The position numbers and the translations under genes are program-made. 64,000 nucleotides of DNA, from assembly GCA_028865035.1 (NCBI GenBank), contig JAGWLB010000002.1, positions 49,531 to 113,530 of the forward strand, given 5' to 3'. Position 1 is the first letter of the stretch, and each line of letters opens with the position of its first letter. The notes below the pieces were generated by a model. That model had not been told where the DNA came from and ran no database searches. It was given only the letters and a program-made list of their open reading frames with translations. Shown here in pieces: positions 27,106-47,119 of this stretch. This DNA is from Patescibacteria group bacterium (GTDB lineage: Bacteria > Patescibacteriota > Minisyncoccia > Phycocordibacterales > UBA9973).

Positions 27106-28643
<1,538 letters not shown>

Positions 28644-43053: not shown

Positions 43054-43179
43054 TTATTTAGATTTCTTCTTTGATGCTTTTTTCTCTAACATTAATTTTT
43101 TAACCTCTAATCTTTTCTTAGTCTTATGAGAGTGACGTGATCTCTTTTTAGGACCAAGAGTTGTATCTCTTTTTGCCAT
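43054..43179 (-). CDS. 41-aa basic small protein
   Basis: MAKRDTTLGPKKRSRHSHKTKKRLEVKKLMLEKKASKKKSK; terminator downstream. Confidence 0.65.
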   Translation of the reverse strand: MAKRDTTLGPKKRSRHSHKTKKRLEVKKLMLEKKASKKKSK

Positions 43180-43335: not shown

Positions 43336-43407
43336 TCCGGAGTAGCTCAGCGGTAGAGCAAGCGACTGTTAATCGCTTGGTCGCAGGTTCGATCCCTGCC
43401 TCCGGAG
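43336..43407 (+). tRNA. tRNA-Asn(GTT)
   Basis: Cloverleaf, anticodon arm agcga-ctGTTaa-tcgct, GTTCGATC; CCA not encoded. Confidence 0.97.
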
Positions 43408-43435
43408 CATTTAAAAATTTTATAAGAATGTAAAG

Positions 43436-43467
43436 AAAAAATCCTGCCTTTTAAAAGACAGGATTTA
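43436..43467. terminator. Terminator between tRNA-Asn and the converging ncRNA
   Basis: aaatcctgcc-ttttaaaa-gacaggattt; T tract on the minus strand. Confidence 0.7.
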
Positions 43468-43690
43468 AGATTGTGTGAACCCATAAGTAGACGTTTAACC
43501 GCGTCTGCTGGCACGTCAATTAGACACTTACTTTCTCTTAGCAACATTGGCATACGTTCCGTGTTAACTACTGGCTCACTTATAAAAAGTGTTATTCTTT
43601 GGGCGGTGTGTACAAGGACTGTTTTTACGCCCTATTAAAGCTCGCTTTCGCTCAGTCCCCCAAAGCACTTTATCTAAGGTACAATCTCAA
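43465..43690 (-). ncRNA. Putative 16S-rRNA-core-like small RNA
   Basis: Contains gtgccagcagacgcggttaa within a full helix 18, ccttgtacacaccgccc and taatagggcgtaaa; ends pair (ttgagattgt/acaatcttaa); -10-like box upstream and terminator downstream. Confidence 0.75.
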
Positions 43691-43808
43691 GACTATATTA
43701 GCATATTATACTCTTCCGAACATCCTCCCAGGTTTGGAGCCATACTTGACAAATTACTTTATATATTATATTTTAGAGTTAAATTGTTAAACTAAAAATT
43801 GAATAATT

Positions 43809-44312
43809 ATGAAAAAAGTTTTTCTTGTTCTTTTAATAACATACTCAATAGTATGTACAGGTTATATTATTTATCTAAAGTCACCTCTCAATGACCATGG
43901 GCATAGACTCTACGGAGTTAAGAATCCAAAAACTATGTTAGTTTTAGATTCAATATTCCGTGATGTAGCTAACCTTCATAGGGATTTGGTCTTTAAGGTT
44001 GGACCGAGTACTCAGGCAATTTACGACAACGGCAGAGTTGGCTTAAATTATATAAGCGACTCAACAGTGGATCTTCCATTATCTGGGCCCAGCTTCGTTG
44101 TCAGTAATCCAGAAGAATCAGCACAAAAAGCCGCTAGGATTCTAACCCGAAATGGATTTAATGCCAGAATTATTGTTAATTTTGACTCAACTTTATCCAA
44201 TAAATTAGTTTTACTTCAAAGTAACTCTATTAATTGGACACTTGTTTTTAGAAGAGATATTCTAAATATGGGCAAGAAACCAAAAGACATAGGTTTCGGA
44301 TGGGCAAAATGA
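43809..44312 (+). CDS. Hypothetical membrane-anchored protein
   Basis: N-terminal TM; own promoter and terminator. Confidence 0.65.
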   Translation: MKKVFLVLLITYSIVCTGYIIYLKSPLNDHGHRLYGVKNPKTMLVLDSIFRDVANLHRDLVFKVGPSTQAIYDNGRVGLNYISDSTVDLPLSGPSFVVSNPEESAQKAARILTRNGFNARIIVNFDSTLSNKLVLLQSNSINWTLVFRRDILNMGKKPKDIGFGWAK

Positions 44313-44477
44313 TTTTCAAAAAAAGATGATTTTTTTATTGAAGGAATCGTGTAACAACGATTCCTTTTTTATTTATCCATATCAACCAAACTCTTCCGAA
44401 CATCCTCCCAGGTTCGGAGCCTAAATTTTAATTTGATTTGTAAGAGGAAAATTGTATAATTAAAGAAAACTTTAGTA

Positions 44478-45125
44478 ATGGAATTAAATGTATCAAAACA
44501 GTATTATGAATCACTTGATTATACTGCCATTTCTTTAATAGAAACCGTTACCCGTTTTAATACTAATTGTGGAAGTATTAACAATATTATATCGACAGAA
44601 GATAACTTTCCTTTGAAAAGGAATCCGGGAGCTAATATTGAAGATTGGAATGGTTTTTTTGTTTCTCGTAATTTTAGATTTTTATTGAAGCTAAATTGTT
44701 TTGGAAAGATAATGGAAATTCCTTACCACAAAAATATTAGCACCCTAATTAGTTGTGCTAGATATGATGAAAAGTTTAATAATGTGGTAATAAATAATGA
44801 TTATTGTCTTAGAAAAGCCAATTTTCTGAAGTCAGTAACAAACCATCAGCTTTTTGGATATCTGTTTTCTAAATCAAATGAGCTATCAATAATGACACTG
44901 GACGATATCAGTTTCCTGTGGATGATTCTAAGTACACTCCTATTTCATGAAAATTTGCTAAATCATGGAGAATGGTGCCACAACGTATTTATGGGTTGGA
45001 AAAGAAATAGTCCTTTAATAGTTCAGAGAATTGGAAAATTATGGCATCTTTCAAATGATGAATTTTATCCTGAACATTCGTATCATGTAAAAGATGAAAC
45101 ATTATTTTTCCCGGTTATCAAGTGA
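44478..45125 (+). CDS. Hypothetical protein
   Basis: 215-aa ORF between repeat sites. Confidence 0.55.
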   Translation: MELNVSKQYYESLDYTAISLIETVTRFNTNCGSINNIISTEDNFPLKRNPGANIEDWNGFFVSRNFRFLLKLNCFGKIMEIPYHKNISTLISCARYDEKFNNVVINNDYCLRKANFLKSVTNHQLFGYLFSKSNELSIMTLDDISFLWMILSTLLFHENLLNHGEWCHNVFMGWKRNSPLIVQRIGKLWHLSNDEFYPEHSYHVKDETLFFPVIK

Positions 45126-45277
45126 TTATAAAGACACCATTTTATTTAACGGTGTCTTTTTAATAATATCTAGAACATTTTCCAATCTTTTCTTAATTTT
45201 ATTCCAATTAGAATTCTGAACTTGTCCACTAAAGCGAGCCAGATAGATTCTCGTTAAAGTTTTGATATAATAAACTT

Positions 45278-45832
45278 ATGAGAAAAATAATTGTACAAGA
45301 AATGATTAGTGTTGATGGATTTTTTGCTGGAGAAAACGGTGAAATAGATTGGCATAATGTGGATGCCGAATTTAATAAATATGCTATTGAATTTCTTAAT
45401 ACCATAGATTCTTTGTTGTTTGGCCGCATTACTTATGAACTCATGGCAAGTTATTGGCCTACAGAAGCTGCTTTAAATGATGACCAAATCGTTGCTTCTA
45501 AAATGAATAATCTTTCGAAAATTGTTTTTTCTAAAACCAGGAATATATTAGAATGGAATAACTCAAAAGTGTTTTCTGAAATTAATGCAGAAGAAATAAA
45601 AAAATTAAAACAAACTGAAGGTAAGGATATTGCCATATTTGGCAGTGGTACTATTGTATCTGAACTTACCAAACTAAGATTAATTGATGAGTATCGGCTT
45701 ATTGTAAATCCTATAGTTCTTGGTAAGGGTAAGTCATTATTTTCATATATAGAAAAAAGATACAAGTTACAGCTCGTAAAAGTAGAAAAGTTTAAATCAG
45801 GAAATGTTTCCCTTCACTACAGTCTTTTATAG
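45278..45832 (+). CDS. Dihydrofolate reductase family (RibD C-terminal) protein
   Basis: SVDGF, LFGRITYE, KIVFS, GKDI.IFGSG, LIDEY.L.V.PIVLG.GK.LF. Confidence 0.92.
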   Translation: MRKIIVQEMISVDGFFAGENGEIDWHNVDAEFNKYAIEFLNTIDSLLFGRITYELMASYWPTEAALNDDQIVASKMNNLSKIVFSKTRNILEWNNSKVFSEINAEEIKKLKQTEGKDIAIFGSGTIVSELTKLRLIDEYRLIVNPIVLGKGKSLFSYIEKRYKLQLVKVEKFKSGNVSLHYSLL

Positions 45833-45929
45833 AATCAATAAGGGTTAAGAACATTTAATAATACTCTTCCGAACATAATCCAAGGTTTGGATCTTGTTAA
45901 TTTTGTAGTAGAGATGTTATATTTCTATC

Positions 45930-46403
45930 ATGGAAGAAAGAGATACAGAAGGAGCTTTTAGATGGATTGTAAATATAATTAAAAAACATAATATACCTTT
46001 TCAGATAAAAGGTGGTTTTGCTTCACGTCTATATGGAGTAAAAAGGGAACTGGCTGATATTGATATATCTATCCCAGAGAATAGATTTGATGAATTAATT
46101 CCTGAAATAAAAGAGTTTATTGTATATGGACCAGAACAATATTTAGATGATGAATGGGATATAAAACTCATAACTCTAACTTACAAAAATCAGGATATAG
46201 ATATAGCAGGAGCATATAAAAAGAAAAACTTTGATAAGATGAACCAGAAATGGGTAAATATACCGACTAACTTTGATACTAGTGTGTATATGGATGTATA
46301 TGGTTTAAATGTACCAGTGATTTCTAAGACAGACCTAATAAATTACAAGAAACTCATTCAAAGAGATGTAGATATATTTGATATTAATGCTTTAAGTAAG
46401 TAA
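45930..46403 (+). CDS. Nucleotidyltransferase-superfamily protein
   Basis: GGFA...YG..R..ADIDI motif; LINYK....R..D..D. Confidence 0.7.
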   Translation: MEERDTEGAFRWIVNIIKKHNIPFQIKGGFASRLYGVKRELADIDISIPENRFDELIPEIKEFIVYGPEQYLDDEWDIKLITLTYKNQDIDIAGAYKKKNFDKMNQKWVNIPTNFDTSVYMDVYGLNVPVISKTDLINYKKLIQRDVDIFDINALSK

Positions 46404-46516
46404 CTTAATATTCTTCAGAACATAGTCTCAGAATTGTAGTTTAGTGAATTTGTAAACGTTATTAATTTTAAATAAGTACTTACATATATGTAAACTTTTA
46501 TGATATAGTCATTGTT

Positions 46517-47119
46517 ATGATAAAAGTATTAATTTTTGATGCTGACGGTGTTCTCATAAATGGTGAGATGTTCAGTAAAATACTTGCTAAAGAATACGGA
46601 ATCTCAACCGAAATAACAGAACCATTTTTTGACGGACCTTTTAGTGAGTGCTTAGTTGGTAATATTGATTTGAAAGAAGCTATTTCTCCATATTTAGAAG
46701 GTTGGGGATGGAAAACAGGTGTGGATAGTTTCCTAGATTATTGGTTTTCTGCAGAGCACTCTATTGATCAAGATTTGATTGCATATATTCAAGAATGTAG
46801 AAAGAGGGGAATCAAGTGCTATGTTGCAACCAATCAAGAAAAGCATCGAGCTGAGTATATGCTTGATAAATTAGGATTTGTAAATAACTTTGATAAGCTT
46901 TATGCTTCTGCGCATTTAGGGCATAAAAAACCAAGTTTGGATTTCTATGAAAAATTAGTAAACGATCTCGACGGCATAAATAAAGAAGAAATCCTATTTT
47001 GGGATGATTCACCTAAAAATATAACGGCCGCACGACAATTTGGAATTAATGCAGAATTATATACTACTTTTGAAGATTTTAATAAGAGAATGAAGATTTA
47101 TCCTGATTTTGATAAGTAA
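46517..47119 (+). CDS. HAD-IA family hydrolase
   Basis: FDADGVL, ATN, KKP, FWDD...N. Confidence 0.92.
   Translation: MIKVLIFDADGVLINGEMFSKILAKEYGISTEITEPFFDGPFSECLVGNIDLKEAISPYLEGWGWKTGVDSFLDYWFSAEHSIDQDLIAYIQECRKRGIKCYVATNQEKHRAEYMLDKLGFVNNFDKLYASAHLGHKKPSLDFYEKLVNDLDGINKEEILFWDDSPKNITAARQFGINAELYTTFEDFNKRMKIYPDFDK

Follow-up and report, generated by a model that had tools for sequence, protein, structure and literature searches.

A modular family of small RNAs resembling mosaics of 16S and 23S rRNA pieces, with a possible role as protein sponges in Patescibacteria

Bacterial rRNA mimicry is known from the cis-acting leaders of ribosomal protein (r-protein) operons. These r-leaders, which include the L20, eL15, S15, and S4 motifs, imitate the binding site of an r-protein outside the ribosome, and in the available part of their description (PMC7247131) they act in cis before r-protein genes, have one ligand, and mimic few nucleotides. 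The RNA element reported here likewise imitates rRNA sites, as indicated by sequence and by independent covariance models, but it has its own terminator and no r-protein gene downstream, does not occupy a 5′ UTR, carries near-verbatim helices, and draws these from both ribosomal subunits. With the rRNAs themselves (RF00177 and RF02541) it shares the sequence and fold of each module; it differs from them in being 226 nt long, non-collinear, of mixed subunits, and without the A-site, anti-SD, and PTC.

A second comparison is with protein-titrating mimic small RNAs (sRNAs), such as CsrB/RsmZ, 6S RNA, GlmY, and the phage Racr RNAs; EBV EBER1 binds eL22. The mode that we propose is alike, in that a trans-acting RNA would copy the ligand of a protein and so titrate it, whereas there is no sequence or structural relation between these sRNAs and the element, nor is any of the sRNAs pieced together from rRNA helices. 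In the family described below, which is a candidate for independent transcription, a promoter-like box was present in five of six members and a terminator-like hairpin in all six. The mitochondrial sRNAs of Toxoplasma, in the available part of PMC10948144, are also small rRNA-like pieces in permuted order; such organellar fragments replace intact rRNA, whereas the element coexists with intact rRNA and its pieces are redundant and optional. Neither a toxin family among the neighboring proteins scanned nor tandem RNA repeats, which would point to a type III TA RNA antitoxin, accompany the element. We found no description of such RNAs in Rfam or in the literature searched, which consisted mostly of open full texts without supplements, and the novelty of the class could be affected by motif catalogues that accompany ncRNA surveys as supplements.

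The stretch of DNA analyzed here (the window, 64 kb) corresponds to C4:49531-113530, part of a contig in a genome of 735 kb with a completeness rating of 100%. This size, together with the separate location of the 16S and 23S genes and the missing match to L30, suggests a member of the Patescibacteria. The element is single-copy, occupies positions 43465-43690 of the minus strand, and sits between a tRNA-Asn gene and the first of four 32-nt repeats (Table 1). A first-pass annotation of this locus had described a mini-16S RNA of decoding-centre elements, and every feature that it named was found in its place, including the h3-like stem and the 10-bp pairing of the ends. It had also assigned the RNA to a slot in the cassette array behind tRNA-Asn; the slot exists in the window, but the position is not conserved in relatives. 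The repeat copies start at 43710, 44390, 45863, and 46410 (region 43710-47119) and are absent elsewhere in the genome. They divide same-strand cassette genes behind tRNA-Asn, namely two orphans, a RibD_C gene, an aminoglycoside adenylyltransferase-like gene (a weak match, below the cut-off), and a HAD gene. By eye the repeat resembles a tRNA T-arm, and the copies are possibly recombination sites.

Table 1. Parts of the RNA and adjoining features in window coordinates
Feature	Position	Strand	Partner, basis, or remark
Extended -10-like element, TGn + TAATAT	43695..43703	-	4 nt upstream of RNA 5′ strand; no -35 match; putative function
Terminal helix P1, 5′ strand	43681..43690	-	Pairs with 43465-43474, 10 bp; predicted fold
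Scaffold helices P2 + P3, 5′ strands	43659..43671	-	P2 with 43586-43591, P3 with 43597-43603; predicted fold
h28-like stem P4, 5′ strand	43653..43658	-	Pairs with 43616-43621; bears swappable loop
23S H29-H31 copy (E. coli 627-651)	43628..43652	-	23/25 against two genuine 23S genes, E 1.7e-5
16S 1388-1404 copy (h28 3′ strand + h28-h44 linker)	43601..43617	-	About 12 nt predicted unpaired
h3-like stem, 5′ strand	43573..43579	-	Pairs with 43475-43481; encloses hairpin X + h18
Hairpin X, h4/h17 position	43539..43570	-	Conserved loop; resembles h43
Purine-rich linker like 16S 493-499	43531..43538	-	h18-model alignment
16S helix 18 copy (500-545) with 505-507/524-526 pseudoknot	43484..43530	-	Covariance model, E ~1e-5
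3′ strands of h3-like stem and P1	43465..43481	-	Predicted fold, covariation
Terminator-like hairpin + U tract, intrinsic	43433..43466	-	Sequence scan; hairpin + T run in 6/6 family members (by eye)
tRNA-Asn(GUU)	43336..43408	+	Convergent neighbour, anchor of variable island; context, not RNA part
32-nt hairpin repeat, copy 1/4	43710..43741	+	Separates island cassette genes; context

Two of the 16S motifs overlap what we take to be the 515F and 1392R primer sites, and an assembly or primer artefact therefore had to be weighed. Read coverage was compared in four runs of the 20 listed, and no listed contig spans the whole 1.5 kb compared, as an artefact would predict. Against this, run X2, from a microbial mat and a different study (P2), contains a 151-nt contig that aligns without gaps to 43471-43616 and differs at 5 positions (97% identity), thereby bridging h18 and the 1388-1404 motif as the annotation's coverage check had called for; the element differs from the 515F primer at 2 of 19 positions, and five divergent homologues lie in other assemblies. 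The artefact reading is already refuted by these independent copies, and we give it virtually no weight. In run X1, positions 43710-44500 are nearly identical while the element is uncovered, which at a depth of 2-5 is not evidence; the same holds for X15, the only RNA run compared, in which the element has no cover and the organism is not shown in the sample.

We next consider the origin of the pieces. Placed on E. coli rrnB, the segments run from 23S 627-651 to 16S 1388-1404 to 16S ~495-550, which is the order of neither rRNA and the content of neither subunit, in agreement with the permutation first noted. The exact universal 16S motif, which had been recognized together with its h28-like stem (P4), matches E. 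coli at 17 of 17 positions and the resident 16S at 15 of 16, and positions 514-537 of E. coli 16S are matched at 21 of 24. In contrast, taatagggcgtaaa, which had been read as 16S ~560-575, turned out to be the 3′ half of the 25-nt copy of 23S 627-651 (helices that we take to be H29-H31). Because this piece is of 23S origin, the RNA is, as judged by its matches, a 16S/23S mosaic in non-native order, and the label of a mini-16S of decoding-centre elements was overstated, since modules of both rRNAs are mixed and the A-site, SRL, and anti-SD are uncopied. The two-motif pattern occurred once in the 64-kb window and in 0 of 100 shuffles.

To place helix 18, we used a covariance model built only from the corresponding regions of six ordinary bacterial 16S genes. 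The element ranked second in 77 kb, after the true 16S, with 26.8 bits (E ~1e-5, rough like all E-values from covariance models built here) against 68.7 bits for the resident 16S. The alignment to this model also puts the 3′ strand of the h3-like stem where h3 follows h18 in 16S. The copy had been called essentially complete; its coordinates and model match support this, but it has an extra base before 511, a 511-540 mismatch, and UUAAA at 531-535. The proposed greater closeness of the motifs to the universal consensus, relative to the resident 16S, is true at single motif positions only and fails for h18 as a whole. No Rfam 15 family reached its gathering score on the element or the homologue loci, in keeping with the view that this is no described family; at E values up to 10 the element gave a single 13-bit chance overlap, and the rRNA models were silent. 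We considered hairpin X as a copy of h43 and rejected this, as its likeness to 16S 1345-1367 was not significant (151/300 and 145/300 shuffles as good).

The predicted fold of the element alone gives a modest signal (z-score -2.23; 6 of 200 shuffles as good). Across the five full-length sequences, aligned at a mean column identity of 59%, 49 pairs were set by hand from the window sequence with relatives in view, and of their 243 cells 94.7% were paired, against 86.8% in shuffles that ignore relatedness (0 of 500 as high). Changes on both sides of a pair occurred in 15 of the 49, compared with 6.6 in shuffles, and slid controls were 34-42% paired. These two-sided changes fall in 5 of 9 counted pairs of P1, 2 of 5 of the h3-like stem (96% paired), 3 of 9 of hairpin X (100% paired), 1 of 4 of P4 (90% paired), and both h18 stems and the pseudoknot; P3 shows none (88% paired), and P2 is uncounted, as the alignment splits this helix. 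In the 505-507/524-526 pseudoknot, for which compensatory change was first proposed, 14 of 15 cells are paired, one pair changes from U-A to C-G in two of five sequences, and there is a single A-G mismatch, in homologue L005.

The ends of the RNA are also conserved. Inspection by eye located a TGn-TAnnnT box immediately before the terminal helix in five of six family members; among those other than the window element, three also have a TTGA(C/T)-type -35 at 17 nt. The flanking terminator that had been annotated was recovered in the window, while the -10-like box was not distinguished there (the promoter scan found 2, with 1.7 expected in shuffles), so that support for a promoter comes from the homologues. 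The RNAs thus form a family with a conserved, co-varying fold, flanked by promoter-like and terminator-like signals.

A search for homologues, which the annotation had named as a check, yielded four full-length members and one partial member. When 241 million metagenome records were scanned for the exact two-motif pattern, the single match was L005, a true homologue with an argS-like gene (59% to that of this genome) on one side and a T-box leader on the other. A ~45-bp direct repeat (argS 3′ end + TTGACA box) at L005 positions 641-680 and 946-990 flanks the homologue, like an integration scar; the T-box-like leader, which scores below the gathering threshold, is found farther along, ahead of a probable ileS. 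In genomes of the same bacterial family, a pattern search found 2 of 300 (L007 and L008), and blastn with L007 matched 11 of 400 besides the window's own genome. Four of these 11 carry an element-type RNA (G523, G440, G501, and, partial, G464), in six more the H29-H31 module stands apart from any rRNA gene, twice within the mini-23S RNAs described below, and one match is a real 23S gene; the prevalence of H29-H31 is partly an ascertainment effect, as the queries hold this module. L145, on a short contig of G645, a genome of the same family, is a 23S gene whose H29-H31 is canonical, and it may be foreign to its bin.

Our other searches returned no homologue. Blastn against 40 relatives gave one terminator-only match, and blastn against 400 genomes of the order gave three weak matches (two true 23S genes and one by chance). 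There was no homologue in 400 genomes of the phylum by strict pattern, in 200 by blastn with L008, or in phage records and plasmids. Of seven pattern scans of IMG/VR, none gave anything real: four were empty, one had a single chance match, one had more than 120 matches, the first 80 of which proved not to be real on nhmmer screening, and one had five matches judged by eye to be chance. A GTDB-wide scan with the exact pattern gave one match, rejected as chance inside a penicillin-binding-protein-like ORF; this pattern is too strict, missing all four GTDB homologues found later, and does not prove absence elsewhere.

We then examined the genomic neighborhoods. G440, G464, and G501 each have the RNA within a variable stretch that adjoins a VirD4-like gene, located between uvrC and tRNA-Ala in the first two and beside a serine recombinase in the third. 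No protein gene is common to the element neighborhoods, no r-protein gene lies downstream either in the window (terminator and convergent tRNA) or at the homologue loci, and no toxin family was detected among 37 neighboring proteins scanned, several of which had no Pfam match at all.

This distribution bears on whether the element is a non-functional relic, that is, a decaying, rearranged rRNA duplicate in mobile islands. The RNAs are rare, their modules are degenerate in L136, L138, and L008, they lie at integration hot spots, and the duplication around L005 would suit such an origin. However, the segments are a non-collinear mixture of 16S and 23S, which excludes a collinear decaying fragment and agrees with the first assessment that the RNA did not arise by recent duplication of the resident 16S; the scaffold helices, P1 above all, co-vary and have no rRNA counterpart, and divergent members retain promoter-like and terminator-like signals at their ends. 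We consider a relic very improbable. The RNAs are a real, selected, modular family of rRNA-mosaic RNAs.

The modularity is evident at the loop borne by P4. L005 holds 23S H13 (241-256, 15/16) in the slot that holds H29-H31 in most members. L008 and L138 have an extra domain of ~150 nt that a model of h34-h40, again from six ordinary 16S genes, matched end to end with 25.3 bits (E ~1e-5) and 28.7 bits (E ~1e-6), respectively, against a best background of 13.1 bits in 67 kb; plain local alignment left both inserts unplaced on 16S (158/200 and 95/200 shuffles as good). The h34-h40 module occurs in 2 of 210 genomes of the bacterial family. L138 is without h18, L136 and L138 have lost 1388-1404, and the h18 loop of L008 is degenerate (h18 model E 0.11). 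On the evidence of these alignments and models, modules from 16S and 23S have been gained, lost, and swapped independently.

Related RNAs extend this pattern. L140 (1340-1680) and L141 (1428-1670) are stand-alone mini-23S RNAs, each closing with a terminator-like hairpin, that join H11/H13, H16, and H22 with an inserted H29-H31 (fold z-scores -2.55 and -1.67); we regard them as a second family. L139, L142, L143, and L144 are intergenic and carry the H29-H31 module on unrelated-looking stems, L144 being cut by a contig end. L139, L140, L142, and L143 start with the motif GTTCTTTGAC, which we take to be like rRNA boxA. When five carriers were searched with E. coli rrnB for further mimics, only L140 reappeared, and no second mimic RNA was evident in the window's genome among the matches listed.

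Domain-sized copies with native topology, such as h34-h40, could suggest a structural piece that is built into ribosomes, as in fragmented or scrambled organellar rRNAs. This is extremely unlikely, given that the resident 16S covers the Rfam model from 1 to 1533 and is thus full length, that H13 and H29-H31 are both present in the resident 23S, that one molecule joins pieces of both subunits, and that most genomes of the bacterial family that were searched are without the RNA. The two resident genes, 16S at window positions 27106-28643 and 23S from genome position C12:187.7k onward, are unlinked.

What, then, might the RNA do? The copied pieces are protein-covered regions of rRNA rather than exposed catalytic or nuclease-target sites. 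In the ribosome, uS12 and uS4 bind h3 and h18, uS5 binds h28 and h36, and uS2 and uS3 bind h35-h40; H13 contacts uL15 and bL35, which bind the mature 50S through several helices. The reading we favor, tentatively and as one that may well be right, is a free-standing, presumably independently transcribed RNA made of domesticated rRNA fragments that acts in trans as a putative multi-site sponge for r-proteins or ribosome-assembly factors; it is favored because protein-covered regions are copied, and the exchange of H13 and H29-H31 in one slot fits a shared partner. The scaffold helices would display each module as it appears in unassembled rRNA. The h3-like stem with h18 would be a putative site for uS12 and partly uS4, 1388-1404 and h36 one for uS5, h35-h40 a putative uS2/uS3 region, and H29-H31 or H13 a putative site for uL15/bL35. 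Capture would leave fewer of these proteins free, which would dampen or buffer ribosome assembly at its late stage or alternatively relieve autogenous repression, and the proteins caught might be the carrier's own or foreign ones of host type. Genes for S3, S4, S5, S12, and L15 were found in the window's genome by tblastn; L30, L29, and L35 gave no tblastn match, and L35 was later found with Pfam. The r-protein assignment of H29/H31 rests on a report that H29, H31, and H88 change position when uL15, bL33, and bL35 are missing, and that H22 forms a kissing contact with H88 (10.1101/2022.03.10.483802).

Several observations weigh against a sponge. The element lacks h16. This helix is a main uS4 contact. 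Because uL15 and bL35 contact several helices in the mature 50S, binding by an isolated 25-nt module is uncertain. Some members have degenerate modules, as in the h18 loop of L008 and the 1388-1404 segments of L136 and L138. With 4 carriers among 400 genomes of the bacterial family besides the window's, the RNA is too rare to be a housekeeping buffer. Furthermore, the modules are unlike the carriers' own rRNA at diagnostic sites, which is odd for a sponge of own proteins. To functions that we have not foreseen we assign a slim chance.

The diagnostic sites are as follows. Position 1396 is A in the mimics and U in five of five residents; the h36 loop is GUGA in the mimics and UUGA in four of four residents; the mimics have G505-Y526 where three of three residents have A526; and the H31 stem of the mimics faces a flipped pair in three of three residents. 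Six ordinary bacteria have the mimic's state at the 16S diagnostic sites. The window element's own H31 copy has U-G at the diagnostic pair and not the canonical C-G. In the resident 16S, positions 526 and 1396 and the h36 loop are altered in a way specific to the family, and h40 has a long insertion.

This pattern, with the common bacterial form retained in the modules at sites where the residents deviate, would fit a defensive decoy for foreign agents that recognize rRNA motifs, be they toxins, RNA-modifying enzymes, or antibiotics such as streptomycin; the carrier's own rRNA would have drifted off target while the decoy keeps the optimal form. The RNAs are patchy, modular, and island-borne, like arms-race cargo, and the cassette neighbors include a GNAT gene besides the weak adenylyltransferase-like gene. 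On the other side stand the pieces that are missing. The A-site, SRL, H69, and anti-SD are known ribotoxin or aminoglycoside sites, and best ungapped matches at background level indicate no copy in the 12 RNAs of any of them (A-site 1489-1503), nor of h27, the 790 loop, the P-loop, the A-loop, or H43; G1405 is replaced. H13 and H29-H31 are not known as drug or toxin targets. The ribotoxin and aminoglycoside decoy options are weakened accordingly, and the r-protein sponge suggested in the first-pass annotation gains as a putative role. Nor is h18 a decoy for the carrier's own m7G527 enzyme, since RsmG (GidB) had no match in three of three carrier genomes tested (G000, G440, and G523), all of which have RsmH. 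Overall, we judge a decoy rather unlikely, and the sponge remains our preferred reading.

The same pattern could also reflect a host-directed RNA tuned to host-type proteins, either delivered into the host, where it would stall ribosome assembly, or trapping foreign r-proteins from the host cytoplasm and so keeping them out of carrier ribosomes. The module of L138 is identical to Priestia 23S and that of L139 to Caballeronia 23S (26/26 each). Patescibacteria are described as epibionts in which T4SS are widespread, mostly without a relaxase (10.1101/2025.01.22.634366); this carrier probably lives on other microbes, and a VirD4-like gene lies within ~4 kb of the RNA in three relatives. That gene, however, accompanies the tRNA-Ala hot spot as a fixed neighbor, and neither the window nor L005 has it next to the element. 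Moreover, two genomes from other families of the same order have canonical H29-H31 in their own 23S, so that the canonical-versus-resident pattern is explicable without a host and is possibly a retained ancestral state. A host-directed role is decidedly unlikely in our view. Somewhat doubtful, and framed for the modular rRNA-mimic class as a whole, is the broader idea that it shows non-self, host-type motifs from both subunits that capture host r-proteins or rRNA-recognizing effectors; with equal reserve, such RNAs could serve as a weapon or a shield where epibiont and host meet, their diversity coming from shuffled modules.

Free-standing genes that mount helices from both rRNAs on a co-varying scaffold of their own and exchange them as cassettes would amount to a new type of RNA, with a role in regulation or conflict. 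They would also supply natural minimal binding modules for uS12/uS5/uS2 and uL15/bL35, and a handle on ribosome-biogenesis control or host interaction in reduced, host-dependent bacteria. As a simple search rule, applying rRNA domain models outside rRNA genes would reveal a class missed by whole-rRNA models. Practically, such genes hold near-matches to universal 16S primer sites. Finally, beyond tRNA-Asn, at 43057-43179 of the minus strand, lies a lysine/arginine-rich ORF of 41 aa, which is without a Pfam match and has a terminator-like hairpin of its own.
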